From Escherichia coli (lineage in GTDB: Bacteria; Pseudomonadota; Gammaproteobacteria; Enterobacterales; Enterobacteriaceae), in NCBI RefSeq assembly GCF_003334255.1, contig NZ_QOWU01000013.1: a stretch of 64,000 nucleotides of DNA; one strand, given 5' to 3'. Positions within the stretch are counted from its first letter, which is position 1; the number at the start of each line of letters is the position of its first letter. This document shows positions 1,589 through 42,297 of the stretch, piece after piece. A program made the position numbers and the translations under genes. A model generated the notes under the pieces. It was not told the origin of the DNA, made no database searches, and saw only the letters and a program-made list of their open reading frames with translations.

Positions 1589-2368
1589 TTAGTAGCTGCT
1601 GGCGCTCTTACCGTCGCCGTGACCCAGCGCTTTCAGCAGGCTTGCCAGCAGGCTGGAAGCGCCAAAGCGGTAGTGACGCGCATCTGCCCAGTCAGCACCG
1701 AACAGTTCATCTGCAATGGCGAGATATTTCTGCGCATCTTCCGCAGTACGCACGCCGCCCGCCGGTTTGAAACCAACGGTTTTTTCTACGCCCATATCAC
1801 GGATCACTTCCATCATGATGCGCGCGCTTTCCGGCGTCGCGTTCACAGCCACTTTACCGGTAGAGGTTTTGATGAAGTCCGCACCCGCTTTGATGGAGAT
1901 TTCAGACGCTTTACGGATCAGCGCTTCGTCTTTCAGTTCGCCGGTTTCGATGATCACTTTCAGCAGTACATTCGCTGCCGCGCAAGCCTCTTTACAGGCT
2001 TTCACCAGGTCAAAACCAACCTGCTCGTTACCCGCCATCAGCGCGCGGTACGGGAACACAACGTCAACTTCATCAGCACCGTAGGCGATTGCCGCACGGG
2101 TTTCTGCCAGCGCGATGTCGATGTCGTCGTTACCGTGTGGGAAGTTGGTTACCGTAGCGATACGGATTTCCGGGGTGCCCTGCTCTTTCAGAGTTTTGCG
2201 AGCAATCGGGATAAAGCGAGGATAGATACAGATAGCGGCGGTATTGCCGACCGGAGTTTTGGCCTGATGACACAGGGCGATCACTTTCTCGTCGGTGTCG
2301 TCGTCATTCAGGGTGGTCAGGTCCATCAATTTCAGTGCACGCAGGCTGCTTGCTTTCAGATCAGTCAT
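1589..2368 (-). CDS. deoC: Deoxyribose-phosphate aldolase
   Basis: ORF track 1589..2392; start trimmed to the internal ATG at 2368 ([20 protein letters not shown]), giving 259 aa; AGGAGAA ribosome-binding site upstream. Confidence 0.95.
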
Positions 2369-2412
2369 TTCATTCTCCTGGCTTGTCGCCAATAAAATTC
2401 ACCTTGCGAGTT

Positions 2413-2428
2413 TGTTAGTATTCTAACA
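2413..2428 (-). promoter_or_regulatory. DeoR operator O2 (overlaps deo P2 promoter)
   Basis: tgttagtattctaaca, a 16-bp palindrome close to the DeoR operator consensus TGTTAGAA-TTCTAACA; 45 bp upstream of the deoC start. Confidence 0.7.
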
Positions 2429-2442
2429 TCTACTCCGCAACA

Positions 2443-2464
2443 CACTTCGATACACATCACAATT
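2443..2464 (-). promoter_or_regulatory. CRP site (CytR/CRP-regulated deo P2 region)
   Basis: Minus strand reads AATTGTGATGTGTATCGAAGTG; TGTGA-N6-TCGAA resembles the CRP consensus TGTGA-N6-TCACA; position fits deo P2. Confidence 0.55.
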
Positions 2465-2625
2465 AAGGAAATCTACTTACAAGTTTGCATCACTGTAATG
2501 CGATCTGGTTCAAATAATTCACTTTCAAATGAATGCGTCAGTGGTGGCAAACGCATCAGGATCAAAGTGAACATCACGAAACTTCTTACAATGGCGCATC
2601 ACCTTCGGCATAAAAGGAAAAGAAG

Positions 2626-4176
2626 ATGCCCACTTCTCATGAAAATGCACTGCAACAACGTTGCCAGCAAATTGTCACCAGCCCAGTGCTTAGCCCGGAG
2701 CAGAAGCGCCATTTTCTGGCACTGGAAGCAGAAAACAATCTGCCTTACCCACAGCTTCCTGCCGAAGCCCGCCGCGCGCTGGATGAAGGTGTAATCTGCG
2801 ATATGTTTGAAGGTCATGCGCCGTACAAACCGCGCTATGTCTTACCCGATTACGCCCGTTTTCTGGCGAACGGTTCCGAATGGCTGGAGCTGGAAGGCGC
2901 GAAAGATCTTGATGACGCACTCTCTCTGCTGACCATTCTTTACCACCACGTACCGTCGGTCACATCGATGCCGGTCTACCTGGGGCAACTGGATGCGTTG
3001 TTGCAACCGTATGTTAGAATTCTAACACAAGACGAGATCGATGTTCGAATAAAACGTTTCTGGCGTTACCTCGACAGAACCCTGCCAGACGCCTTTATGC
3101 ACGCCAATATCGGCCCGTCTGATTCGCCCATTACCCGCGCGATCTTACGTGCAGATGCAGAGTTGAAGCAGGTTTCACCGAACCTGACCTTTATCTACGA
3201 TCCTGAAATCACCCCTGATGACCTGCTGCTGGAAGTGGCGAAGAACATCTGTGAATGTAGCAAACCGCACATCGCCAACGGTCCGGTGCATGATAAAATT
3301 TTCACAAAAGGGGGCTACGGGATTGTGAGCTGTTACAACTCACTGCCGCTGGCGGGTGGTGGCAGCACGCTGGTACGCCTTAACCTGAAAGCCATTGCCG
3401 AGCGCAGCGAATCGCTGGATGACTTCTTTACGCGCACTCTACCGCACTACTGCCAGCAGCAGATCGCCATCATCGATGCGCGGTGTGAATTCCTCTATCA
3501 ACAATCACACTTCTTTGAGAATAGCTTCCTGGTGAAAGAAGGGCTGATTAACCCTGAACGTTTTGTGCCAATGTTTGGCATGTATGGGCTGGCGGAAGCG
3601 GTTAACTTGCTGTGTGAAAAAGAAGGGATTGCCGCGCGCTACGGTAAAGAAGCCGCCGCAAATGAAGTAGGTTATCGCATCAGCGCGCAACTGGCGGAGT
3701 TTGTCGCCAATACCCCCGTGAAATATGGCTGGCAAAAACGCGCCATGTTACACGCACAGTCGGGGATCAGTTCCGATATCGGCACCACGCCGGGCGCGCG
3801 TTTGCCGTATGGCGATGAGCCAGATCCGATCACCCATCTGCAAACTGTCGCCCCGCATCATGCTTATTATTATTCCGGCATCAGCGACATTCTGACGCTC
3901 GACGAAACCATCAAACGTAACCCGCAGGCACTGGTACAGCTTTGCCTCGGTGCCTTTAAAGCCGGAATGCGTGAATTTACCGCCAATGTCAGCGGTAACG
4001 ATCTGGTTCGCGTTACCGGTTATATGGTGCGTTTGTCGGATTTAGAAAAATATCGCGCCGAAGGTTCACGCACCAACACCACCTGGCTGGGCGAAGAAGC
4101 CGCACGCAACACTCGTATTCTGGAACGCCAGCCGCGCGTGATAAGCCATGAACAGCAGATGCGCTTTAGTCAGTAA
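2626..4176 (+). CDS. yjjI: Glycyl-radical enzyme family protein, function unknown
   Basis: 516-aa ORF with a C-terminal glycyl-radical-like motif ([12 protein letters not shown]); AAGGAAAAG ribosome-binding site before the ATG; followed by the activase gene yjjW. Confidence 0.85.
3012..3027 (-). promoter_or_regulatory. DeoR operator O1 (deo P1 promoter), inside the yjjI coding sequence
   Basis: Perfect 16-bp palindrome tgttagaattctaaca exactly 599 bp from O2, the canonical O1-O2 spacing. Confidence 0.7.
3291..3306 (-). promoter_or_regulatory. Candidate DeoR upstream operator OE
   Basis: tgataaaattttcaca, a degenerate operator-like palindrome (about 12/16 match) 279 bp beyond O1, fitting the reported roughly 278-bp OE position. 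Confidence 0.4.
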
Positions 4177-5011
4177 GATTATCCCCTTCTCCTGCGTTGA
4201 CGGGCCAGGCAGTCGTCTGGCTCTGTTTTTGCAGGGCTGCAATCTGCGCTGCAAAAACTGTCACAATCCGTGGACGATGGGACGTTGCAATGACTGTGGG
4301 GAGTGCGTGCCACAGTGTCCGCATCAGGCGTTGCAGATTGTTGACGGCAAAGTGGTGTGGAACGCTGTGGTTTGCGAGCAGTGTGATACCTGCCTGAAGA
4401 GGTGTCCGCAACATGCCACGCCCATGGCGCAATCCATGAGCGTGGACGAAGTGCTTAGCCATGTCCGCAAAGCAGTGCTGTTTATCGAAGGGATAACGGT
4501 GAGTGGCGGTGAAGCCACGACCCAGCTGCCGTTTGTGGTGGCGCTGTTTACTGCTATCAAAAACGATCCGCAACTGCGCCATCTCACCTGTCTGGTGGAC
4601 AGTAACGGCATGTTGAGCGAAACCGGCTGGGAAAAATTGCTCCCGGTGTGCGACGGCGCAATGCTCGATCTCAAAGCGTGGGGGAGCGAATGTCATCAAC
4701 AACTCACCGGACGCGATAATCAGCAGATTAAGCGCAGCATCTATTTGCTGGCAGAGCGCGGCAAGCTGGCGGAACTGCGTTTGCTGGTGATCCCTGGCCA
4801 GGTGGATTATTTGCAACACATCGAAGAACTGGCGGCGTTTATCAAGGGACTCGGCGATGTTCCGGTACGCCTGAACGCGTTTCATGCCCACGGCGTGTAT
4901 GGCGAGGCGCAAAGCTGGGCGAGCGCCACGCCGGAAGACGTTGAGCCGTTGGCTGATGCGTTAAAGGTGCGCGGGGTGAGCCGGTTGATATTTCCGGCGC
5001 TCTATTTGTGA
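4148..5011 (+). CDS. yjjW: Glycyl-radical enzyme activating protein (radical SAM, with extra ferredoxin-like Cys clusters)
   Basis: 287 aa; radical SAM motif CNLRCKNC near the N-terminus plus [12 protein letters not shown] and [12 protein letters not shown] clusters; start overlaps the yjjI 3' end by 29 nt. Confidence 0.85.
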
Positions 5012-5012
5012 C

Positions 5013-5436
5013 ATGCCGGATACGGCCTACGGTTCGGCACAGACTTGTAGGCCTGATAAGACGCGTCAAGCGTCGCATCAGGCATTGTGCGCCAACTGCC
5101 GGATGCGGCGCGAACGCCTTATCCGGCCTACGGTTCGGCACAAACCTGTAGGCATGATAAGACGCGACAAGCGTCGCATCAGGCATTATGCGCCGACTGC
5201 CGGATGCGGCGTGAACGCCTTATCCGGCCTACGGTTCGGCACAGACTTGTAGGCATGATAAGACGCGACAAGCGTCGCATCAGGCATTGTGCGCCAACTG
5301 CCGGATGCGGCGTGAACGCCTTATCCGGCCTACGGTTCGGCACAAACCTGTAGGCATGATAAGACGCGTTAAGCGTCGCATCAGGCATTGTGCGCCAACT
5401 GCCGGATGCGGCGTGAACGCCTTATCCGGCCTACGG
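5013..5436. repeat. BIME/REP tandem array, about 101-bp unit x 4 plus a partial unit
   Basis: gccggatgcggcg recurs at 5098, 5199, 5300 and 5401 (period 101 bp); each unit holds two inverted REP copies; ORFs predicted here on both strands are repeat artefacts. Confidence 0.8.
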
Positions 5437-13289: not shown

Positions 13290-13376
13290 GCGAAGGTGGC
13301 GGAATTGGTAGACGCGCTAGCTTCAGGTGTTAGTGTCCTTACGGACGTGGGGGTTCAAGTCCCCCCCCTCGCACCA
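13290..13376 (+). tRNA. leuV: tRNA-Leu (anticodon CAG), single copy
   Basis: 87-nt sequence GCGAAGGTGGCGGAATTGGTAGACGCGCTAGCTTCAGGTG...CCTCGCACCA with CAG anticodon, long variable arm and encoded CCA. Confidence 0.95.
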
Positions 13377-13668: not shown

Positions 13669-13776
13669 TGATAATGATAACCAATATCATATGATAATTT
13701 TTATCATTTGCAAGCCAGATAAATCCCTTGCTATCGGGTAAACCTATCGCTAGGATTAGCAATCATTATCATTTAG
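13669..13776. promoter_or_regulatory. Fur boxes in the fhuF promoter region
   Basis: tgataatgataaccaatatcat, atgataatttttatcatt and gcaatcattatcatttag resemble the Fur consensus GATAATGATAATCATTATC; directly upstream of fhuF. Confidence 0.55.
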
Positions 13777-14617: not shown

Positions 14618-15295
14618 TTAATAGGGATGCAACACATTACTTGTTTCGCAATGCCGCATACATAACAGAATATCTGCGGCCTCCAACAACCCTGCGTCAG
14701 AACTGACGCCCAGTTTCGACATCACATTAAATTTATGTGCACGGATCGTTTTGATATTGCGTTTAAGCTGCTCGGCAATTTGTGTCATTGAGTAGCCACG
14801 CGACATAAAGCGCAATATTTCTCTCTCCGTCGGGCTTAACGTCCGGCTTTGGTTAATGTACCACTGATTGTTCAGTCGGTCGGTCGCCTGACGTACACCA
14901 TTTAATGACAAAAAGAGTTCCTGATGAAAAATCTCCAGCGTTGACGCTTTACTTAATACACCGTCCAGCGGTGATGGCGACAATGAACCAATCAGCCGAG
15001 CTTCAATATCATCATCCGCAATAACTAAACGCCGGGTACGCGGAAACTTAATCGCCAGTTCAGTCAGGCAAGATAATCCCTCTCTGCGCTCACTTCTCAT
15101 GGCAGAAAAAGAAAAAATGACCGCCGCAAACGAGATCCGCGACATGGCATCCTGAAATGACTCCTGACTGGTATAGGTATGGAGCTTATAAGGGTTACCC
15201 GCAAACTTTCTGAATAAACTCTCAATACCGATACTACTCATGACGCATTTTTCTATGAGTGCGACATTTCTCTTCTTAATTCGGCTGTGTTCCAT
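14618..15295 (-). CDS. bglJ: LuxR-family transcriptional activator
   Basis: 225 aa with C-terminal LuxR-type HTH ([20 protein letters not shown]); overlaps the yjjQ 3' end. Confidence 0.9.
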
Positions 15296-15978
15296 TCTGC
15301 GGCATCTCCATAAACAGAAGGCAAGTTAAGTTCTCTTGCACCCTGCGCGCTATTTATCCATGCATACATTTCAGCGTTGCTGTGAATTGCCAGTCGACGC
15401 ATCGCACTGTTTTTTTGGGCGCTGATAGTTTTATTACTTTTCTTAAGCAATGAAGCTATCTGGTTGATGCCCCATCCTTTACCTAATAGCCGCAGTACCT
15501 TGCGCTCTGAAAGAGTGAGAATGACGGAGCGATAGCTAAAATCATGAGTTTCAGTCATTGCCGGGGAGGTCAGCATGGCGCTGATACGCTCTGCGTGCGT
15601 ATTGCCGGAACGTACGGTCTTGACCAGATTCTCAATGGGTTCAACATCAGACAATAACGTCGCCGTAGGGCACATGAGCAGTTCTACTGCCTGGGAATAC
15701 CAGGAGCGTGACACCATGAAAACCCAGTGAATTTCCCGATATTGTGAGATTAAAGAATAATAATGTTCACAAACAGAACGTGGATCTTCACTTTCACCGG
15801 CTAAATCAGCAATGACTAATCCGGAACGACGTAATTGTAATAAGGTAAGGTCCTCCGCAGAGGCGCTGGATATTATTTCATATTCAGGGAAGTGAGTCCT
15901 CATGACCTCTTTTAACCCTGCTTGCATAACAGGTATTTTACTGATAACAATTCCATTTTTGCAGCATCCTGGCAACAT
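15253..15978 (-). CDS. yjjQ: LuxR-family transcriptional regulator
   Basis: 241 aa with C-terminal LuxR HTH ([20 protein letters not shown]); first gene of the yjjQ-bglJ operon. Confidence 0.9.
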
Positions 15979-16596
15979 ATTTCCTCCACATCCACTGTCT
16001 AAAAATTATGATGGTTTATTCAGGATATTCATTCCTTAAATGTTTCCAGCAAATTAATAGATTAAGCGAATAAATTATCCTTAGCATTCACTTTCATATC
16101 AGCATACTCCTGCTGCACAACAACTCCACTGCATGTGTCAGAAGGTTAGCATCAAATGATAACCTGGTGAAATAGCCTGGAGACATTTAAAATATCTACA
16201 TTAAGTTGTTAGGAATACTTAATGAAAAACAGAAATCACATTCATTTAATTTATAATTAAATGATATCCCTTCCCGCAGAATGCAAAATCACACAACCAA
16301 TATTTATTCAATGAAATCTGATGGTTTTAGCTTGTTAACATTAAAAAACGTGCCCGGTTATCTATTATCCTGATTCGTAAAGGCCAAACAATAAATTCAT
16401 TATGATGATAATATTCATGTGATAGTTTGTTTGCGGCGAGAGATAATTCGCTTTTTATCACCGAGCTTCTCCCGATAACCAGGATTAATCAGCGCAATTT
16501 TGATCTTAACCTACCGCAAAACAACCGTGCTTCATGATACAAATGGATTCTCATTATCTGAACAATACGCAGCACGTCTATGACAAAGGGCGAGTT
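15979..16596. promoter_or_regulatory. AT-rich divergent control region (yjjQ-bglJ / yjjP), probable H-NS-silenced
   Basis: About 600 bp, strongly AT-rich with long A/T tracts; yjjQ-bglJ is known to be H-NS-repressed and LeuO-activated. Confidence 0.5.
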
Positions 16597-17367
16597 ATGC
16601 AAACTGAGCAACAGCGAGCCGTAACACGGCTTTGTATCCAGTGTGGATTATTTCTTTTGCAACATGGTGCGGAAAGCGCGTTGGTTGATGAGCTTTCCTC
16701 ACGACTGGGTCGGGCACTGGGAATGGACAGCGTCGAAAGTTCTATCTCTTCGAACGCCATAGTGCTGACAACTATTAAAGATGGGCAATGCCTGACATCG
16801 ACACGTAAAAATCACGATCGCGGCATTAATATGCATGTGGTGACTGAAGTCCAGCACATTGTGATTCTTGCGGAGCATCATCTGCTGGATTACAAAGGCG
16901 TAGAGAAACGATTTAGCCAAATTCAGCCATTACGTTACCCAAGATGGCTGGTAGCCTTAATGGTTGGCCTTTCTTGCGCCTGTTTCTGTAAACTCAATAA
17001 CGGTGGCTGGGATGGTGCCGTCATCACCTTCTTTGCCAGTACGACCGCGATGTATATCCGCCAGCTGCTGGCACAACGTCATCTTCATCCACAGATCAAC
17101 TTTTGCCTTACCGCTTTCGCCGCCACCACCATTTCCGGATTGCTTTTGCAACTCCCCACTTTCAGCAATACCCCCACCATTGCGATGGCCGCCAGCGTTC
17201 TGCTGCTAGTGCCGGGCTTTCCGTTGATTAATGCCGTCGCCGATATGTTTAAAGGCCACATCAATACCGGACTGGCACGCTGGGCGATCGCCAGTCTGCT
17301 GACACTGGCTACCTGCGTCGGCGTAGTGATGGCACTGACGATTTGGGGGCTACGCGGATGGGTGTGA
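16597..17367 (+). CDS. yjjP: Inner membrane protein, ThrE-type exporter family
   Basis: ORF track 16534..17367; start set to the ATG at 16597 ([21 protein letters not shown], 256 aa). Confidence 0.85.
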
Positions 17368-17831
17368 TCGAATTTCTGTTAGCGTTGGCGCAGGATATGA
17401 TCCTCGCCGCCATTCCTGCGGTCGGCTTTGCGATGGTGTTCAACGTTCCCGTGCGGGCGTTACGCTGGTGTGCGCTGCTTGGCTCGATAGGTCATGGTTC
17501 CCGAATGATCTTGATGACCAGCGGGTTGAATATTGAGTGGTCAACCTTTATGGCTTCTATGCTGGTCGGTACCATTGGTATTCAATGGTCGCGCTGGTAT
17601 CTGGCGCATCCGAAAGTGTTTACCGTGGCGGCCGTTATCCCTATGTTCCCGGGCATATCGGCTTATACCGCAATGATTTCGGCGGTAAAAATCAGCCAGT
17701 TAGGTTACAGCGAACCGTTGATGATTACCCTGTTAACCAACTTTCTTACAGCTTCATCGATTGTTGGTGCGTTATCCATCGGTCTTTCCATTCCTGGATT
17801 ATGGTTGTACCGCAAGCGCCCTCGCGTATAA
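17358..17831 (+). CDS. yjjB: Inner membrane protein (partner of YjjP)
   Basis: 157 aa from the ATG at 17358 ([28 protein letters not shown]); overlaps the yjjP 3' end. Confidence 0.85.
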
Positions 17832-30589: not shown

Positions 30590-31546
30590 ATGAACCCGAT
30601 TGCAGTTACCCTACTCACCGGTTTTTTAGGCGCAGGAAAAACCACCCTGCTGCGCCATATTCTTAACGAACAGCACGGCTACAAGATTGCCGTGATTGAA
30701 AACGAATTCGGCGAAGTCTCTGTTGATGATCAACTGATTGGCGACCGCGCCACGCAGATCAAAACGCTGACCAACGGCTGCATCTGCTGTTCGCGCTCCA
30801 ACGAGCTGGAGGACGCGCTACTCGACCTGCTGGACAATCTCGACAAGGGCAATATTCAGTTCGACCGTCTGGTCATTGAATGCACCGGTATGGCCGATCC
30901 CGGCCCGATTATTCAGACCTTTTTCTCCCATGAGATTTTATGCCAGCGCTACCTGCTGGATGGCGTGATTGCGCTGGTGGATGCGGTACATGCCGATGAG
31001 CAGATGAACCAGTTCACCATCGCCCAGTCCCAGGTGGGCTACGCTGACCGTATTCTGCTGACTAAAACCGACGTCGCAGGCGAAGTAGAGAAACTGCGTG
31101 AACGCCTGGCGCGCATCAACGCCCGCGCACCGGTCTACACCGTCACCCACGGTGACATCGACCTGGGCCTGTTGTTCAACACCAACGGTTTTATGCTGGA
31201 AGAAAACGTCGTCAGCACCAAACCGCGTTTCCACTTTATCGCGGATAAACAAAACGATATTTCGTCGATTGTGGTGGAACTGGATTACCCGGTAGATATC
31301 AGCGAAGTTTCCCGCGTGATGGAAAACCTGCTGCTGGAATCGGCAGATAAACTGCTGCGTTACAAAGGGATGCTGTGGATTGACGGCGAACCTAACCGCC
31401 TGCTGTTCCAGGGCGTCCAGCGCCTCTACAGCGCCGACTGGGACAGGCCATGGGGCGATGAAAAACCGCATAGCACCATGGTGTTTATCGGGATTCAGCT
31501 GCCGGAGGATAAGATTCGGGCGGCGTTTGCTGGGTTGAGGAAGTAA
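30590..31546 (+). CDS. yjiA: CobW/P47K-family GTPase
   Basis: 318 aa from the ATG at 30590 (MNPIAVTLLTGFLGAGKTTLL, P-loop) with CICC metal motif; ORF track extends upstream in the same frame. Confidence 0.9.
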   Translation: MNPIAVTLLTGFLGAGKTTLLRHILNEQHGYKIAVIENEFGEVSVDDQLIGDRATQIKTLTNGCICCSRSNELEDALLDLLDNLDKGNIQFDRLVIECTGMADPGPIIQTFFSHEILCQRYLLDGVIALVDAVHADEQMNQFTIAQSQVGYADRILLTKTDVAGEVEKLRERLARINARAPVYTVTHGDIDLGLLFNTNGFMLEENVVSTKPRFHFIADKQNDISSIVVELDYPVDISEVSRVMENLLLESADKLLRYKGMLWIDGEPNRLLFQGVQRLYSADWDRPWGDEKPHSTMVFIGIQLPEDKIRAAFAGLRK

Positions 31547-31564
31547 TTTTGGATGATGGATGAT

Positions 31565-31597
31565 GGCCGCCATGTGGCGGCCTGAATTATTTTTTGT
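31565..31597 (+). terminator. Hairpin/terminator after yjiA (convergent with brnA)
   Basis: ggccgcc-atgt-ggcggcc hairpin followed by TGAATTATTTTTTG. Confidence 0.5.
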
Positions 31598-31889
31598 TCT
31601 GATCGCGCAGCATCGCTTCACGTAAAATTGCGTTCAGGCGAGTTTGATAGCCTTTACCAGGTCGCTTCAGCCATTCCATCACATCAGCATCAATACGCAC
31701 CGAAGCCTGGGTTTTCAATGGCCGATAAAACTTACCGCGTTCTGCGTTAGACCATTGCTCATCGCTGGAAGGTGGGATATCGCTGTAATCAATCTCTTCG
31801 TCGGATTTATTCGCCAGCGCCTTCAATTCGGCCTCATGCTGCACATCGAGTGTAGAGGAGGTCCCTCGTTTATGTTTAACCATGCTCAT
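31587..31889 (-). CDS. BrnA-like antitoxin (type II TA)
   Basis: About 100 aa from the ATG at 31889 (MSMVKHKRGTSSTLDVQHEAELKALANKSDEEIDYSDIPP...), GGAG ribosome-binding site 5 nt upstream; overlaps the toxin 3' end by 14 nt. Family assigned by resemblance, not alignment. Confidence 0.65.
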   Translation of the reverse strand: MSMVKHKRGTSSTLDVQHEAELKALANKSDEEIDYSDIPPSSDEQWSNAERGKFYRPLKTQASVRIDADVMEWLKRPGKGYQTRLNAILREAMLRDQNKK

Positions 31890-32163
31890 AGCGACTCCTC
31901 TCTTTACGATCTGCTTTTCGTGCACTGATGATTCGAATAATTTCATTTCCGCTTTCGAAACGGATGGTATGCGCAACCAGAATAACCACGATACCGTGAA
32001 CCACGCCGATAGTCTGCCAGCGATACTCACCGTTTTCTATGCGATCTTGCTGTGACAAATGTTGTGGATCATCAAACACCAACACCGCATCTTCAAAGCG
32101 GATGCCATGTTTCACCCGATTACTTTTGGCCTTGTTTGCATCCCATTCAAACTCCATTGGCAT
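31876..32163 (-). CDS. BrnT-like toxin (DUF497 ribonuclease family, type II TA)
   Basis: About 95 aa from the ATG at 32163 (MPMEFEWDANKAKSNRVKHGIRFEDAVLVFDDP...); toxin-first order with overlapping antitoxin, as in BrnT/BrnA modules. Confidence 0.65.
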   Translation of the reverse strand: MPMEFEWDANKAKSNRVKHGIRFEDAVLVFDDPQHLSQQDRIENGEYRWQTIGVVHGIVVILVAHTIRFESGNEIIRIISARKADRKERSRYEHG

Positions 32164-32178
32164 AGTTGCCATCCCTAA

Positions 32179-32190
32179 TTGTATATACAA
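32179..32190. promoter_or_regulatory. Perfect 12-bp palindrome upstream of brnT (candidate autoregulatory operator)
   Basis: ttgtatatacaa, 16 nt upstream of the brnT start codon within an AT-rich region. Confidence 0.35.
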
Positions 32191-32359
32191 AAATGTATCT
32201 ACAATTATTCTGCAATTATAGCGTTGATGTTGGAAATAGCATCACGTTTTGGATAATCAACCATGAAATTGACAATGAGTAAGTTGGACTTGATTCATCC
32301 AATAGAATTTCTCGCCTGACATGGCACACTAAACACCTCGCTGTCGTTAAGGGATTACC

Positions 32360-33526
32360 GTGAAAAACTATAAAGTTATTACCCCGCTTTTTCCTACCTA
32401 TGCACAGGTTAAAGCTATGATGAAAGCCGTCTCAGGCTATTCCCTGAAAGCGGTACGCAATATGATTACCGCCATTCACGAGCAAACCGGTACGCCGCAA
32501 AAACCCGTTGACTGGTCGGAACCCGACCTGTGGATCAGCGAGCGCTTAACGGGTGAAGATGCCGACATCGCCCGTCGTATTTGGGATACCGATAATCACA
32601 TCTTGAACCCGCGCCACAGCTACGGCTGCTACTTATTCCTCAACTATCCCCAGTTTGATCTGATGGAAAGCACACCAGATGATACCTGGCAGCCCACCTC
32701 GCACGGGCAAAAATTCCTGCAAGATGACGAAAAAACGCTGCGTTCACTGGACGATCAGGAAGGCATTCTGCAACTTCTTGAACTATTAGCTGGCCGCGAA
32801 ATGTCGCGCCGCGCCGATTTATTGCCGGAATGGCAGGCCTTTTTGCATCAGCATTCGAAATTCGCGTCTGCAAGTTCAGTGAAAAGCACGCTCTACTCCC
32901 GTCTCTATAACCTTATCGACCGTGACATGGTTAACCGTGAAGGCATGAGCTATCGCATCACCGATACCGGGCGCGCCTGACTTGGAAAAGCGTTACCTGC
33001 ACGAAAAAGCGATCCGCGTAAAGAGCTGTTGGAAGCGGTAAAACGCTATAACGAACAGCAAAAAGAGCTGCTGCGCGAACAAATCAGCACGATGAACCCG
33101 TACAAATTTGAACAACTGGTCGGTCAATTACTGGAAGCAATGGGCTACGAGCAGGTCGAAGTGACCAAAGCCTCTGGCGATAAAGGCGTGGACGTGATTG
33201 GTCAGGTGCAGGTCGGCATCACCACCATTACAGAAGTGGTGCAGGTCAAAAGAATGCAGAACACTATCACTCGCCCGTATATCGACCAGTTGCGCGGGGC
33301 GTTGCCTTACCACAAAGCCATTCGCGGTACGCTCATCACCACCGGGAAATTTGCGGCGAAATGTGCAGAAGCGGCGCTCTTTCCGGGTGCCGCGCCCATT
33401 ACGCTTATCGACGGCGATCGTTTACTGGAACTGTTAATCGAAAATAACGTCGGCATTCGCCGCAGCAATGCAGTGGAATTGCTGGATGTAGATTTGCAGT
33501 TGTTTGATGAGCTGGAGATGGATTAA
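32360..33526 (+). pseudogene. Mrr-family restriction endonuclease gene interrupted by an in-frame TGA
   Basis: One reading frame from the GTG at 32360 to 33526, broken only by TGA at 32978-32980; the C-terminal part (...GDKGVDVIGQVQ...VQVKRMQNTITRPYIDQL...TTGKF...) is a typical Mrr catalytic domain, and translation across the stop reads as a continuous linker. Confidence 0.65.
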
Positions 33527-33589
33527 AGGGCGAAATCCGCCGCCTCAACCATTACAATAGCGACCCAATTTATCTGAACAGAGTTCATC

Positions 33590-35198
<1,609 letters not shown>

Positions 35199-35209
<11 letters not shown>

Positions 35210-36590
35210 TGGCTTCAAGTTACCTCTAGGATGGAATTGTAAAAAACTGGTTGATTGTACAAAGGAGGGAAATATCTCTTATGGTATTGTTCAACCAGGT
35301 CAGCATCAAGAAGATGGCATTGGTATTATTCGTGTAAATAATATACAAAATGGAAATATTTACATAGACGATGTTCTGAAGGTTTCTCATGAAATAGAAA
35401 GTAAATTTGCCAAAACTAGGTTAGAAGGAGGAGAAGTACTTTTAACACTAGTGGGTTCCACTGGAATTAGCGCCATTACAACTAAAGCACTACAGGGATG
35501 GAATGTTGCTCGTGCCGTAGCCGTAATTAAGCCATGCGATGAAATAAGTGCAGAGTGGATACATATTTGCCTCCAATCACCTTTTACAAAATATTTTTTG
35601 GATTCCAGAGCTAATACTACTGTTCAGAAAACTCTCAATCTCAAAGACGTGAAAGAAATTCCATTACCAATTCCTCCACATGAGGAAAGAGTAAGTCTTG
35701 AGAAAATTTACTTCAATTTTGAGAATAGAATAAACTTAAATATAAAAATTAATAAAATCCTAGAAGAAATGTCACAAAACCTGTTCAAATCCTGGTTTGT
35801 AGATTTTGATCCGGTGGTTGATAACGCTCTGGATGCAGGAAACCCAATTCCGGAAGCCCTGCAATCTCGCGCCGAATTGCGTCAAAAAGTACGTAATAGT
35901 GCAGATTTTAAACCGCTTCCGGCGGAAATCCGCTCGCTTTTCCCAAGTGAATTTGAAGAAACGGAGTTGGGTTGGATGCCAAAGGGATGGCAAATTAAAT
36001 CATTAGATCATATTGCTAATTTCCAGAATGGTTTGGCTTTACAAAAATTTAGGCCGAAGAATATGGAGGATGATTATTTACCTGTATTAAAAATAGCAGA
36101 TCTCCGAGCAGGACAAATAACTAATGACGAACGAGCAAGAACTGATATTTCTGATAGTTGTAAGGTGTATGACGGCGATATGATTTTCTCATGGTCGGGG
36201 ACTTTGATGATCGATATTTGGACTGGTGGGAATGCTGCATTAAATCAGCATTTATATAAGGTCACATCAAAAAAATACCCACAATCTTTTTATTTTATGT
36301 GGACAATACAGCATCTTTCAAGATTTCAACATATTGCAGAGGCAAAAGCGGTAACAATGGGGCACATCAAAAAAGGAGATTTAAGTAACTCTTTCTGTCT
36401 AATTCCTACTTCATCGTTGATTACTAAATATGATAATATCGTTGGAGGATATTTAGCGAAGATTAAAAATCAAAGATTGTTAAATAACCAAATGACCGCC
36501 CTACGCGACACCCTGCTCCCGAAACTCATCTCCGGCGAGCTATCCCTGGACGATATTCCGGATCTCAACACCGATACAGAAGCTGCATAA
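35199..36590 (+). CDS. hsdS: Type I restriction-modification specificity subunit HsdS
   Basis: 463 aa; ATG overlaps the hsdM stop by 11 nt (GGAGGGG ribosome-binding site); two AT-rich variable regions separated by GC-richer conserved central and C-terminal segments. Confidence 0.85.
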
Positions 36591-36684
36591 CGCATTTTGC
36601 CCCTGTAAAATCAGGGGCTTTCTGGTAAGGTTTTCTACTGATACGGGAATGCTTACCAGAAATTAGCCAGGGTTGGAGCGCGAT

Positions 36685-39600
36685 ATGAGTCTCTCTTTCA
36701 GTGAAGCAAAATTAGAACAAGCGATCATTGAACTGTTACAGGATCAGGGATATCAACACCTGATCGGCGATAATGTCCCACGTTCGACTCTCGATCAGGT
36801 CATTATCGAAGACGATCTCCGTCATTATTTAGCGGCACGCTACCAGCCTGATGGCATTACTGAAGAAGAGATTCAGCGACTGATCAAACAGTTCACCACG
36901 CTTCCGGCCTCCGATCTTTATGAAAGCAACAAAACATTTTGTCGCTGGCTGGCAAATGGTTTTCTGTTCAAACGCGACGATCGGCAAAAAAAAGATCTCT
37001 ATATTGAATTGCTCGACACCCGGCATCTACCTGCCGCACTGCGCCAGATATTTGACGCTGAAGATGTCCCGTTGCAACAGGCGGCGGAACTCCCGCCCTC
37101 CTATATTAATCCGCCGCTTAACCGGATTAAGATTGTTAACCAGCTTAAAATCTCCGGTAAAGATAATCAGACTCGTATTCCTGACGGCATTCTCTATATC
37201 AACGGTCTGCCACTGGTCGTCTTTGAATTTAAAAGCGCGGTGCGCGAGCAGGAAGCCAATATAGGCGATGCCTGGAAGCAGCTCTGCAAACGCTATCGCC
37301 GGGATATTCCGCAACTGTTTATCTACAACGCGCTCTGCATTATTAGCGATGGTGTAAATAACCGGATGGGCAACCTGTTTGCGCCCTATGAATACTTTTA
37401 CTCATGGCGCAAAGTCACCGGTAATGAAAACCGTGAACAGGACGGAATTCCATCATTGCACTCAATGATTCAGGGACTGTTTCATCCGGTACGTCTGTTG
37501 GATGTGATTAAAAACTTTATCTGCTTCCCGGATAAAGCCAAGCACGAAGTAAAAATTTGCTGCCGATATCCGCAGTACTATGCCGCCCGCAAACTCTATT
37601 ACAGCATCAAGCAAGCGCGTAAACCTTTCGGTAGCGGTAAAGGCGGTACCTACTTTGGCGCAACGGGCTGCGGAAAAAGCTACACCATGCAATTTTTAAC
37701 CCGCCTGTTAATGAAAAGCGTGGAGTTTGCCAGCCCGACCATTGTTTTGATCACCGACCGTACCGATCTGGACGATCAGCTTTCTGCGCAAATGTGCAAC
37801 GCCAAAAATTACATTGGCGATGACACCATCGTTCCCGTTACCAGCCGTGAAGATTTGCGTAATCAACTGGCGGGACGCAATAGTGGCGGTGTATTCCTGA
37901 CAACGATCCATAAATTCACCGAAGACACCGAACTCCTTTCTGAACGCAGCAATATCATTTGCATCTCGGACGAAGCACATCGCAGTCAGGTTAACCTCGA
38001 CCAGAAAGTCATCGTCGATAAAGAAAGCGGAAAAGTGCGCAAAACTTATGGCTTTGCGAAATACCTGCACGATTCACTGCCAAACGCCACCTATGTTGGC
38101 TTTACCGGAACTCCGATTGACGCAACACTCGATGTCTTCGGTGAGGTGATCGACAGTTACACCATGACCGAATCCGTTCAGGATGAAATCACTGTACGCA
38201 TCGTGTACGAAGGCCGTGCGGCTAAAGTGATCCTGGACTCCAGCAAACTGGAAGAAGTCGAAAAGTATTACGAAGAGTGCGCAAACGCAGGCACCAATGA
38301 GTGGCAAATCGACGAAAGCAAAAAAGCCACCGCAACCATGAATGCGGTACTGGGTGATGAAGATCGGTTAAAAGCCCTCGCGGAAGATTTTGCCAAACAT
38401 TATGAAAAACGCGTAGCCGAAGGTTCCACCGTAAAAGGCAAAGCCATGTTTGTTTGTGCCAGCCGTGAAATTGCCTGGGATTTCTACCGCCAGCTTAAAG
38501 TTATTCGCCCTGCCTGGTTTGAAGTGAAGCAAGCCCCCGATGGCGTCGTCCTGACGGAACAGGAGCAGAAAGAGTTACCGCCTTCTGAAATGGTGAAGAT
38601 GGTCATGACGCGCGGTAAAGATGACGACGAGGCGCTTTATGATTTACTGGGCACAAAAGAATATCGCAAAGAGCTGGATAAGCAGTTCAAAAACGCTAAA
38701 TCGAATTTCAAAATTGCCATTGTTGTTGATATGTGGCTGACCGGTTTTGATGTTCCTGAACTGGATACCATCTATATTGATAAGCCCTTACAAAAACATA
38801 ACCTTATCCAGACTATTTCTCGCGTTAACCGTAAACTGGAAGGCAAAAGCAAAGGGTTAGTAGTGGACTACATCGGCATTAAGAGTCAGATGAACCAGGC
38901 ACTGGCAATGTATTCCCGCATTGATGCCACCAACTTTGAAGATATTCAGCAATCGGTAATAGAAGTTAAAAACCATCTCGATTTGTTGGGGCAAGTATTT
39001 TATGAATTCGACAGTCGGGATTATTTTAGTGGTGAGCCACAAGCGCAATTATCCTGCCTCAACCGCGCGGCGGAATTTGTTCTGCGCACTCAGAAAGTTG
39101 AACGTCGTTTTATGGGACTGGTTAAACGCATGAAAGCCGCCTACGACGTCTGCTGCGGCAGTGAAGCACTATCACAGACAGAACGTGATCATATTCACTA
39201 TTATCTTGCTGTTCGTTCAATTGTTTTCAAACTGACGAAAGGTGACGCACCGGATGTCACCCAGATGAATGCACGCGTTCGTGAAATGATTGCAGAAGCG
39301 CTAAAAGCTGATGGCGTAGAAGAAATTTATTTTCTTGGCGATAAAAAAGCGGAATCCATCGATATTTTTGACGAAGATTATCTGGCGCGAATTAACAAGA
39401 TCAAACTTCCGGCAACGAAGATCCAGTTATTACAAAAATTACTGGAAAAAGCGATCAGCGACTTCAAGAAAGTGAACCAGTTGCAAGGGATTAACTTCAC
39501 CCGCCGCTTCCAGGCGATTATAGATCGTTATAATGAGCGGCGAGAAGATGATGTACTCAACGGTGAAGAATTCGATACATTCAGTCAGGAAATGACCGAT

Positions 39601-39948
39601 ATTATCTATGATATTAAAACCGAAATGGGCACATGGGCCGATTTAGGTATTGATATTGAAGAAAAAGCGTTTTTCGACATTCTTGCTCATATGCGCGATA
39701 AATATCAGTTCACCTATGACGATGAAAAAATGCTGTCACTGGCAAAAGAGATGAAAAGCGTGGTTGACAACACATCGAAATATCCTGACTGGAGTAAACG
39801 CGATGATATTAAAGCGAAACTGAAAGTTGAACTTATTCTGCTTCTACACAAGCATAAGTTCCCGCCAGTAGCAAATGATGATGTTTATATGGGTGTGCTG
39901 GCACAGGCAGAGAATTTTAAAGAACATCATATGAGTGCTTTAAATTAA
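36685..39948 (+). CDS. hsdR: Type I restriction endonuclease subunit HsdR (helicase-nuclease)
   Basis: About 1087 aa from the ATG at 36685 (GGAG ribosome-binding site; ORF track starts at TTG 36673); Walker A GATGCGKS and DEAH box ISDEAHRSQ. Confidence 0.9.
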   Translation: MSLSFSEAKLEQAIIELLQDQGYQHLIGDNVPRSTLDQVIIEDDLRHYLAARYQPDGITEEEIQRLIKQFTTLPASDLYESNKTFCRWLANGFLFKRDDRQKKDLYIELLDTRHLPAALRQIFDAEDVPLQQAAELPPSYINPPLNRIKIVNQLKISGKDNQTRIPDGILYINGLPLVVFEFKSAVREQEANIGDAWKQLCKRYRRDIPQLFIYNALCIISDGVNNRMGNLFAPYEYFYSWRKVTGNENREQDGIPSLHSMIQGLFHPVRLLDVIKNFICFPDKAKHEVKICCRYPQYYAARKLYYSIKQARKPFGSGKGGTYFGATGCGKSYTMQFLTRLLMKSVEFASPTIVLITDRTDLDDQLSAQMCNAKNYIGDDTIVPVTSREDLRNQLAGRNSGGVFLTTIHKFTEDTELLSERSNIICISDEAHRSQVNLDQKVIVDKESGKVRKTYGFAKYLHDSLPNATYVGFTGTPIDATLDVFGEVIDSYTMTESVQDEITVRIVYEGRAAKVILDSSKLEEVEKYYEECANAGTNEWQIDESKKATATMNAVLGDEDRLKALAEDFAKHYEKRVAEGSTVKGKAMFVCASREIAWDFYRQLKVIRPAWFEVKQAPDGVVLTEQEQKELPPSEMVKMVMTRGKDDDEALYDLLGTKEYRKELDKQFKNAKSNFKIAIVVDMWLTGFDVPELDTIYIDKPLQKHNLIQTISRVNRKLEGKSKGLVVDYIGIKSQMNQALAMYSRIDATNFEDIQQSVIEVKNHLDLLGQVFYEFDSRDYFSGEPQAQLSCLNRAAEFVLRTQKVERRFMGLVKRMKAAYDVCCGSEALSQTERDHIHYYLAVRSIVFKLTKGDAPDVTQMNARVREMIAEALKADGVEEIYFLGDKKAESIDIFDEDYLARINKIKLPATKIQLLQKLLEKAISDFKKVNQLQGINFTRRFQAIIDRYNERREDDVLNGEEFDTFSQEMTDIIYDIKTEMGTWADLGIDIEEKAFFDILAHMRDKYQFTYDDEKMLSLAKEMKSVVDNTSKYPDWSKRDDIKAKLKVELILLLHKHKFPPVANDDVYMGVLAQAENFKEHHMSALN

Positions 39949-40070
39949 TTATGAAGGCCGGATACACTTTGTTATCCGGCCATTCTGAATTAACGTTAAT
40001 TTCTCTTCCAGATCTTTCCAGTAACGCTTTTATTATTTTCTATTTTTAGCTGGACTTCCCCCCATATTTA

Positions 40071-40086
40071 CTGATGATATATCCAG
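40071..40086 (+). promoter_or_regulatory. LexA box upstream of symE
   Basis: CTGATGATATATCCAG, i.e. CTG-N10-CAG with an AT-rich centre, close to the LexA consensus CTGT-N8-ACAG; about 80 bp upstream of symE. Confidence 0.55.
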
Positions 40087-40109
40087 GTATTTAGCGCGGT
40101 GCGGATGTG

Positions 40110-40190
40110 CGCCAACACACCCGCACCGCTCATCACAATCACTATTTATGGAGAATAGTAATCATGACTGACACGCATTCTATTGCACAA
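40110..40190 (-). ncRNA. symR: Candidate SymR antisense sRNA (coordinates approximate)
   Basis: Placed by established knowledge that a roughly 77-nt antisense RNA overlaps the symE 5' UTR and start; an inverted repeat gcggtgcgg...ccgcaccgc (40095-40129) lies at the predicted 3' end. Not independently detectable from sequence alone. Confidence 0.3.
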
Positions 40191-40502
40191 CCGTTCGAAC
40201 CAGAAGTCTCTCCTGCAAATAACCGTCAATTAACCGTGAGCTATGCGAGCCGCTACCCGGATTACAGCCGTATTCCCGCCATCACCCTGAAAGGTCAGTG
40301 GCTGGAAGCCGCCGGTTTTGCCACCGGCACTGTGGTAGATGTCAAAGTGATGGAAGGCTGTATTGTCCTCACCGCCCAACCACCCGCCGCCGAAGAGGGC
40401 GAACTGATGCAGTCGCTGCGCCAGGTGTGCAAACTGTCGGCGCGTAAACAAAGGCAGGTGCAGGATTTTATTGGGGTGATTAGTAGCAAAACGCCACGCT
40501 AA
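40164..40502 (+). CDS. symE: SOS-induced toxin-like protein SymE
   Basis: 112 aa from the ATG at 40164 ([52 protein letters not shown]...); LexA box upstream. Confidence 0.85.
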
Positions 40503-40543
40503 GTTTCTCTCCCCTTCCCCATACGGGAAGGGAAATTGCCCCC

Positions 40544-40708
40544 TCACTCCACATCCTCCCTGCGTAACCCGATATCCCTCAACCGCTCATCACTCATCTG
40601 CTGTAACACCCGCCGGGCCTGCATTTGCCGCCGCCAACGCCTCACCGCCTGCCAGAGTTGCACGAAGCCGATAAACGGCGCGTTGGCTTTGTTTTCGTGA
40701 AATTCCAT
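40544..40708 (-). CDS. yjiS: Small DUF1127-family protein
   Basis: 54-aa ORF absent from the ORF track (below its length cutoff): MEFHENKANAPFIGFVQLWQAVRRWRRQMQARRVLQQMSDERLRDIGLRREDVE, with GAGGAGG ribosome-binding site 6 nt upstream; divergent from yjiR. Confidence 0.75.
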   Translation of the reverse strand: MEFHENKANAPFIGFVQLWQAVRRWRRQMQARRVLQQMSDERLRDIGLRREDVE

Positions 40709-40884
40709 CTGCTGCCTCCTCATCTTTCAGAGGCTTCATCATCCGCCTTCTGGCAGTTCACAATACAGATGCAAATATTAGTTTTATTTAACATACAGAC
40801 AGGTTAAAACAGCATCTGCATCCGGTTTTTTAGCCTCATCTGTACCGGTTTTTCTCTCTGTATGGTCCAAATAAGGAATACAGC

Positions 40885-42297
40885 ATGACGCGTTATCAAC
40901 ATCTGGCAACTCTGCTTGCCGAGCGGATTGAGCAAGGGCTGTATCGTCACGGGGAGAAATTGCCGTCGGTGCGCAGCTTAAGTCAGGAGCACGGCGTCAG
41001 CATCAGCACCGTGCAGCAGGCGTATCAGACGCTGGAGACGATGAAGCTCATCACTCCGCAGCCGCGTTCGGGGTATTTTGTCGCACAACGTAAAGCCCAG
41101 CCGCCAGTGCCGCCGATGACGCGTCCGGTGCAGCGCCCGGTGGAAATTACCCAGTGGGATCAGGTGCTGGATATGCTGGAGGCGCATAGCGACAGTTCCA
41201 TTGTTCCGTTAAGCAAAAGCACGCCGGATGTCGAAACGCCCAGCCTGAAACCGCTCTGGCGGGAGCTAAGCCGGGTGGTGCAGCATAATCTGCAAACCGT
41301 TCTCGGTTATGACTTGTTAGCCGGTCAGCGAGTGTTGCGGGAGCAGATTGCCCGCCTGATGCTCGACAGTGGCTCGGTGGTCACCGCCGATGACATCATC
41401 ATCACCAGCGGCTGCCATAACTCGATGTCGCTGGCGTTAATGGCGGTGTGTAAACCGGGCGATATTGTCGCGGTCGAATCCCCCTGTTATTACGGTTCGA
41501 TGCAGATGCTGCGTGGCATGGGCGTGAAAGTGATTGAAATCCCAACCGATCCAGAAACAGGCATCAGCGTTGAAGCGCTGGAACTGGCGCTGGAACAGTG
41601 GCCGATTAAAGGCATCATTCTGGTGCCAAACTGTAATAATCCGCTGGGATTTATTATGCCGGACGCGCGCAAACGGGCCGTTCTCTCTCTCGCTCAGCGT
41701 CATGATATTGTGATTTTTGAAGATGATGTCTACGGCGAACTGGCAACGGAGTATCCGCGCCCGCGGACCATTCATTCCTGGGATATCGACGGGCGAGTGC
41801 TGTTGTGCAGCTCGTTCAGTAAAAGCATTGCACCTGGCCTGCGCGTGGGTTGGGTCGCACCGGGGCGTTATCACGATAAACTGATGCATATGAAATACGC
41901 CATCAGCAGCTTTAATGTGCCGTCCACGCAAATGGCGGCGGCAACGTTTGTGCTGGAAGGTCACTATCATCGCCATATCCGGCGGATGCGGCAGACTTAT
42001 CAGCGCAATCTGGCACTTTATACCTGCTGGATACGGGAATATTTTCCCTGCGAAATCTGTATTACGCGCCCGAAAGGCGGATTTTTACTGTGGATAGAAT
42101 TGCCTGAACAGGTCGATATGGTCTGCGTCGCGCGGCAGCTGTGCCGCATGAAAATCCAGGTGGCGGCAGGCTCGATTTTCTCGGCTTCCGGCAAATACCG
42201 TAATTGTCTGCGCATCAACTGCGCTTTGCCGCTCAGCGAAACCTATCGCGAAGCACTGAAGCAAATTGGCGAAGCCGTGTATCGGGCAATGGAATGA
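40885..42297 (+). CDS. yjiR: MocR/GntR-family regulator with aminotransferase-like (PLP) domain
   Basis: 470 aa; N-terminal GntR HTH (LPSVRSLSQEHGVSISTVQQAYQTLE) followed by a large aminotransferase-like domain; AAGGAA ribosome-binding site. Confidence 0.9.
   Translation: MTRYQHLATLLAERIEQGLYRHGEKLPSVRSLSQEHGVSISTVQQAYQTLETMKLITPQPRSGYFVAQRKAQPPVPPMTRPVQRPVEITQWDQVLDMLEAHSDSSIVPLSKSTPDVETPSLKPLWRELSRVVQHNLQTVLGYDLLAGQRVLREQIARLMLDSGSVVTADDIIITSGCHNSMSLALMAVCKPGDIVAVESPCYYGSMQMLRGMGVKVIEIPTDPETGISVEALELALEQWPIKGIILVPNCNNPLGFIMPDARKRAVLSLAQRHDIVIFEDDVYGELATEYPRPRTIHSWDIDGRVLLCSSFSKSIAPGLRVGWVAPGRYHDKLMHMKYAISSFNVPSTQMAAATFVLEGHYHRHIRRMRQTYQRNLALYTCWIREYFPCEICITRPKGGFLLWIELPEQVDMVCVARQLCRMKIQVAAGSIFSASGKYRNCLRINCALPLSETYREALKQIGEAVYRAME

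Follow-up and report, generated by a model that had tools for sequence, protein, structure and literature searches.

The window, the whole 64-kb stretch of Escherichia coli DNA analysed here, carries two divergent transcription units separated by a spacer of 618 bp (15979-16596), which is the exact gap between the start of yjjQ and the RefSeq start of yjjP. To the left of this spacer, on the minus strand, lie yjjQ (15253..15978), the first gene of the yjjQ-bglJ operon, coding for a LuxR-type regulator of 241 aa, and bglJ (14618..15295), which overlaps the 3' end of yjjQ and codes for a further LuxR-type regulator, the partner of RcsB (PMC3950696). To the right, on the plus strand, are found yjjP (16597..17367), coding for a ThrE-family exporter subunit of 256 aa, and yjjB (17358..17831), which overlaps the 3' end of yjjP and codes for the second subunit; the pair is annotated as a putative succinate exporter of the ThrE family. 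Both regulator genes have a GC content of 45%, vs 51-52% for yjjP and yjjB, and 51-57% when dnaT is taken together with these two. The RefSeq annotation bears out the genes named in the original prediction, and the divergent gap of about 600 bp that it placed between them matches the annotated intergenic region exactly.

Sequence context of the spacer

The window runs antiparallel to the chromosome of E. coli K-12 MG1655, in which the four genes are named yjjQ (b4365), bglJ (b4366), yjjP (b4364) and yjjB (b4363) in RefSeq. The spacer is identical to MG1655 4,602,859-4,603,476 at 618/618 positions, and its 2.2-kb surroundings, with annotated bglJ, yjjQ, yjjP and yjjB, were found by megablast in 5,425 of 5,426 complete E. 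coli genomes. Neither in MG1655 nor in the best-matching genome, N18-04097, does the gap between yjjP and yjjQ contain any annotated feature. Matches to the spacer obtained from a plasmid collection were discarded, being chromosome fragments mislabelled as plasmids. Within an 8-kb stretch around the spacer, the sole base that differs from MG1655 is found at 13753, in the fhuF-yjjZ intergenic region (A at MG1655 4,605,702, and C on that strand here).

Other features of the window deserve a brief description. A single tRNA-Leu(CAG) gene (13290-13376) occupies the place of the three-gene leuQ-leuP-leuV array of MG1655, and the same lone copy is annotated in N18-04097 (NZ_CP047277.1); this could reflect either a real recombinational collapse or a collapse during assembly. 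At 5023-5436, in the GC-rich (60%) convergent intergenic region of yjjV and yjjW, staggered BLAST matches to MG1655, offset by about 101 bp, indicate what would be a tandem array of units of about 101 bp. The window is, moreover, a mosaic. Over positions 1-31546 it shows 99.8-100% identity to MG1655; over 31000-41000, where type I restriction-modification genes, a restriction endonuclease and yjiA are located, it shows 100% identity to strains of phylogroup B2 such as S88 and ATCC 11775, and beyond that stretch the matches to much of the K-12 hsd-mcr region are weak or absent. The mosaic looks like a replacement at the 'immigration control' region.

Composition, bending and variation of the spacer

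The marked AT-richness claimed for this region in the original prediction was confirmed on computation, the GC content of the spacer being 34.5% vs 50.0% for the whole window, and not the average composition that would speak against the claim. Only 2.0% of the 618-bp windows have a GC content as low or lower. The AT content reaches 65.5% over 618 bp, and 71-74% in the core; thus, an AT content well above average over several hundred bp, as is characteristic of H-NS-silenced DNA, is found here. The AT-richest core (16181..16400, approximately 29% GC) is also the probable zone of H-NS nucleation; 200 bp inside it (16200-16399) have 29% GC, and the lowest 150 bp, centred at 16255, have 26%. The homologous 66 kb of MG1655 contain 53 intergenic regions, of which the spacer is the longest (618 bp, with a median of 121), and its GC content is the fifth-lowest when only regions of 100 bp or more are counted (median 42.2%). 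It is therefore AT-rich even by intergenic standards, though not the most extreme case. Low-GC patches also occur elsewhere in the window, at 35076-36700, 39262-40200 and 48645-51400, the last of which reaches 30% GC over 618 bp, below the value of the yjjQ-yjjP spacer.

Extended A/T tracts had also been claimed, and they are indeed present, since nine runs of A/T bases of at least 8 bp were counted (the longest, of 19 bp, at 16244-16262), a number matched by only 1.7% of the window tiles. Taking into account that composition-matched shuffles give 7.1 +/- 2.1 such runs, these tracts are a consequence of composition and not an extra feature. A similar result was obtained for the high-affinity nucleation motif of H-NS, a published tCGATAAATT-like 10-mer: at up to 2 mismatches, it has 3 matches in the spacer vs 1.4 +/- 1.2 in composition-matched shuffles, and 9.5% of the window tiles hold as many or more, so the spacer is not enriched in this motif beyond its composition. 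This 10-mer is not obligatory for binding by H-NS. As far as we know, there is no reliable LeuO sequence motif that could be used for scanning.

Predicted curvature, to which the original prediction had also pointed, does not single out the spacer. In a dinucleotide wedge model, whose absolute values are only indicative, the mean curvature is 9.6 deg per approximately 3 turns vs 8.9 +/- 1.1 in the window tiles, and this ordinary mean is reached or exceeded by 22% of the tiles and 59.5% of the shuffles. A single local peak of 26.6 deg appears at 16503 (>99th percentile of positions). The A-tracts are unphased, the AA/TT periodicity at 10-11 bp in the spacer being not significant, with 14% of the shuffles reaching the observed power. 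In sum, the spacer is distinguished by its AT-richness, with neither distinctive bending nor a distinctive nucleation motif.

Variation within the species was analysed as the proportion of variable sites per segment in eight E. coli genomes. This proportion is 2.2% across the 5' end of bglJ and the coding sequence of yjjQ (15200-15978), 3.5% in the yjjQ-proximal 200 bp of the spacer (15979-16180), 18.5% in its central 220 bp (16181-16400), 4.6% in its yjjP-proximal 200 bp (16401-16596), and 5.3% in the coding sequence of yjjP (16597-17367), in which third codon positions reach 13.6%. Accordingly, the centre of the spacer evolves at approximately the synonymous rate, and both ends are constrained. 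Two structural variants were examined, and neither is a simple IS insertion in the spacer: strain ET12567 carries an IS10-type element within the coding sequence of yjjQ (locus L005), and the cat isolate PS3Tanimalfeces2 carries an IS1 together with a deletion that takes away the spacer, yjjQ, and portions of bglJ and yjjP (locus L006). In E. coli CV601, yjjP contains an internal stop and is marked as a pseudogene (locus L001, 4398-5168).

For the comparison across the family, 74 loci were retrieved from species-representative Enterobacteriaceae genomes with a degenerate DNA pattern for the helix-turn-helix peptide of YjjQ. Among the informative species, those whose loci hold both gene starts, yjjQ and yjjP are divergent in 55/55. 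In 50 of these, the spacer has 387-836 bp (median 453) and 31-42% GC (median 36%), vs about 51% for the locus; its AT-richest 150 bp have a median of 24% GC (17-31%) and lie at a relative position of 0.36-0.54, while the final 100 bp before yjjP have 47% GC. Identity to E. coli falls fastest across 16225-16470. Thus, the sequence of the core drifts freely while its AT-richness and central position are kept, and the promoter-proximal flanks are conserved, a pattern that would fit a centre recognised by its composition and ends that carry promoters.

In the remaining 5 of the 55 loci, yjjQ and yjjP lie approximately 2.6-2.8 kb apart and two ORFs stand between them (L072, in which they occupy 1889-4503, L034, L066, L059 and L077). 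The hosts are Citrobacter amalonaticus, another Citrobacter, Intestinirhabdus alba and two Franconibacter species; one of the ORFs codes for a flavin monooxygenase of 394 aa, similar by eye to PobA (4-hydroxybenzoate hydroxylase), and the other for a product of about 291-299 aa. With regard to the flanking proteins, identity to E. coli outside Escherichia (L014-L087) is 46-74% for YjjQ and 40-69% for BglJ, and 76-92% for YjjP and YjjB.

Putative promoters, the marbox and the start of yjjP

Motif searches point to putative divergent promoters for both units inside the spacer. For yjjQ-bglJ, a promoter scan predicts a sigma-70 promoter, CTGATA-17-GATAAT, at 16074..16102 on the minus strand, which is also listed as the best yjjQ promoter match in an RpoD genomic SELEX report (PMC3946193). 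Its putative -10 element, GATAAT, is contained in the motif GGATAA-N3-ATTYR (16067..16080, minus strand), which is found 101-118 nt upstream of the yjjQ ATG in 16/23 loci of Escherichia, Citrobacter and Salmonella (0 expected), and in 0/35 loci of other genera. For yjjP, the putative core promoter is a conserved extended -10 element, TGaTACAAA, at 16535..16543 on the plus strand, and 50/52 Enterobacteriaceae loci carry the corresponding pattern TGnTAnAAn at a distance of 35-80 nt upstream of the yjjP ATG, while shuffles give an expectation of 0.6. An alternative yjjP promoter, ATGAAA-17-TTTAAT (16222..16250, plus strand), is predicted in the SELEX paper (PMC3946193), and was judged weaker than the extended -10 because it falls in the non-conserved core.

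The start of yjjP, on which the length of the spacer depends, can be approached in the same way. An element resembling a Shine-Dalgarno sequence precedes the ATG at 16597 in 52/52 loci, while the in-frame upstream ATG at 16534, which would give a YjjP of 277 aa, has a counterpart in only 8/52; these counts support the 256-aa protein and, hence, the 618-bp spacer. Furthermore, the older 277-aa start at 16534 would fall within the putative yjjP promoter. The conserved extended -10 would thus pin the yjjP promoter and, together with the conserved Shine-Dalgarno element, supports the shorter start. The abstract of the 2008 study by Stratmann and co-workers reportedly gives the spacer 555 bp, and this value differs from 618 bp because yjjP then started at the ATG at 16534.

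A marbox, GCATCAAATGATAAC, predicted as a MarA site with MEME in PMC5684230, is located at 16149..16163 on the plus strand. In that report, MarA ChIP-seq in ETEC H10407, a strain other than the source of the present sequence, gave a strong (+++) peak between yjjP and yjjQ, for which gcatcaaatgataac is the site predicted (PMC5684230); this 15-mer is present unchanged at 16149-16163. The putative yjjQ start is found approximately 70-100 bp downstream of this marbox, and the putative yjjP start approximately 390 bp away; the text consulted in PMC5684230 reports no effect of MarA on the transcription of yjjQ or yjjP. Repeats are scarce in the spacer, consisting only of two direct repeats, short and of two copies each, and two inverted repeats, likewise short; chance probably accounts for them. 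A 19-mer containing the marbox (16146-16164) has a 79% direct copy at 16251-16269, 105 bp away (ten helical turns), and the two arms of a 14-nt inverted repeat (16036-16049/16177-16190, 93% complementary) enclose the marbox together with the putative yjjQ promoter. In AT-rich DNA, either repeat may have arisen by chance.

A shared control region and its known relatives

Taken together, these data favour, with a probability of roughly 0.93, the reading that the spacer is a shared control region of yjjQ-bglJ and yjjP-yjjB, silenced by H-NS and derepressed by LeuO. Identity, composition, layout, conservation and core-promoter motifs were computed in the present analysis; H-NS repression, LeuO activation, the in vitro binding of H-NS and RNA polymerase, and MarA occupancy come from the literature. 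A 2008 article by Stratmann, Madhusudan and Schnetz (J Bacteriol 190:926) names the divergent yjjP in its title as well, and reportedly describes repression by H-NS of both yjjQ-bglJ and yjjP, with LeuO counteracting that of yjjQ-bglJ. In that study, H-NS is reported to bind the middle of the spacer, in a position distal to both promoters, and the LeuO sites are reported to be central and distal to the yjjQ promoters, one of them overlapping the yjjP promoter.

Later reports, in the passages that deal with this locus, describe yjjQ-bglJ as H-NS-repressed and LeuO-activated (PMC5025477, PMC3950696, PMC4264507, PMC2646131), all of them citing Stratmann et al. 2008, and one refers to yjjQ-bglJ as an operon under repression by H-NS (PMC3950696). 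As stated in passages of PMC5025477, H-NS repression prevails in laboratory conditions, in which the locus is OFF, the double-positive loop of LeuO and BglJ is not operative, and native LeuO and native yjjQ-bglJ exert no measurable mutual feedback. In genomic SELEX the spacer binds the RpoD holoenzyme in vitro and is flagged as containing an H-NS site (PMC3946193), and an in vitro peak of the RpoS holoenzyme has been placed in the yjjQ-yjjP spacer (PMC5493296). It has also been described that IS insertions in the spacer are repeatedly selected in the mouse gut, with yjjP rising approximately 2-fold aerobically (PMC5094792), which fits, without proving it, a relief of silencing. The H-NS-silenced, LeuO-responsive nature proposed in the original prediction is supported by these reports and by the identity to the K-12 sequence.

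Could the length of the spacer instead reflect a hidden gene, small protein or small RNA that has escaped annotation, and not regulation? Three ORFs of 40-45 aa fall wholly or partly inside it, and a terminator-like hairpin at 16435-16452 is followed by a T-run. One terminator-like site is, however, what shuffles lead one to expect (0.9 +/- 0.9), and an Rfam scan of the spacer at E<=1 gave zero matches. With regard to the ORFs, the reading frame of orf44 (16327-16461) is interrupted in every other Escherichia species and also in several E. coli, and orf40 (16489-16611), intact in 8/8 E. coli, is truncated in other Escherichia species. Most of the third (15902-16039) lies over yjjQ; this ORF is unbroken in E. 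coli and falls outside the cross-species alignment. Both ORFs that were followed across Escherichia thus fail to stay open, in agreement with the earlier claim that no confident ORF is present. The nearly synonymous rate of variation at the centre and the empty annotation of the gap in MG1655 and N18-04097 also argue against a hidden gene, an explanation which can be considered as largely refuted already and very improbable.

Scarcely more credible is the proposal that the AT-rich DNA is a recent horizontal remnant, for instance the scar of a mobile element that arrived with yjjQ-bglJ, subject only to generic xenogeneic silencing. The lower GC content of yjjQ and bglJ (45% vs 51-57% for yjjP, yjjB and dnaT) and the much faster divergence of their products (40-74% vs 76-92% identity for YjjP and YjjB) would agree with such an origin. 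Nevertheless, the divergent layout with a long AT-rich spacer in 55/55 informative species, belonging to many Enterobacteriaceae genera, indicates that the arrangement is old; moreover, the spacer has no IS ends or substantial repeats, and promoter motifs are conserved on both of its flanks.

Returning to the shared control region, a mechanism can be proposed. The AT-rich centre, recognised by its composition, would recruit the nucleoid protein H-NS, with nucleation probably taking place in 16181-16400. H-NS would then oligomerise outward, or bridge DNA, over both promoter-proximal arms until reaching the two promoters, silencing yjjQ on the minus strand (near 16067-16102) and yjjP on the plus strand (near 16535-16543). 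LeuO, a regulator of the LysR type, would bind in the spacer and disturb the H-NS complex, leading to the derepression of yjjQ-bglJ, and BglJ, together with RcsB, would later activate leuO, bgl and other loci. MarA and IS insertions may constitute further, less understood routes into the locus.

The region belongs to the well-studied LeuO / BglJ-RcsB / bgl circuit and, as a discovery, its value is small. The new part of this analysis is the comparative anatomy of the spacer: across approximately 50 species, the spacer keeps its length and its core keeps its AT-richness and central position without keeping its sequence, which offers a clean natural example of H-NS targets specified by composition and not by sequence. 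The most promising clues to the physiological signal that opens the locus are the MarA site and the IS insertions selected in the gut. A bolder proposal, which we regard as speculative and rather unlikely, is that a composition-encoded silencer has been selected family-wide, as a central segment of approximately 150-250 bp with about 75% AT whose sequence is free to drift, and that its opening signal arrives via the conserved marbox (MarA/SoxS/Rob) and not via LeuO. If this were true, opening through the marbox would connect antibiotic or oxidative stress either with the regulons of BglJ-RcsB and YjjQ or with export by YjjPB.

As regards known systems, the observation is real, but the spacer, its silencer H-NS and its anti-silencer LeuO had already been described in 2008. 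The yjjQ-bglJ/yjjP region of K-12 (Stratmann 2008) has the same sequence, flanking genes and divergent layout as the present spacer, although the host is not K-12 itself, its best match being the human isolate N18-04097. In the upstream silencers of the bgl operon and of leuO, too, the regulatory DNA is described as AT-rich, with H-NS as the silencer and LeuO as the factor that lifts silencing, and bgl, leuO and yjjQ-bglJ form one regulatory circuit, in which BglJ-RcsB also derepresses bgl and leuO (PMC5025477, PMC2646131). IS insertions in the regulatory region are reported to alter expression both in bgl (PMC5493358) and in the present spacer (PMC5094792), and the marbox-like 15-mer at 16149-16163 is a trait in common with the promoters of the MarA/SoxS/Rob regulon. 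In contrast, the silencing of bgl depends on CRP and makes use of an additional H-NS site that lies downstream, within the transcription unit, whereas the yjjQ-yjjP spacer differs from both bgl and leuO in that one central AT-rich core would serve two divergent units, and in that the silenced cargo consists of regulator genes themselves.
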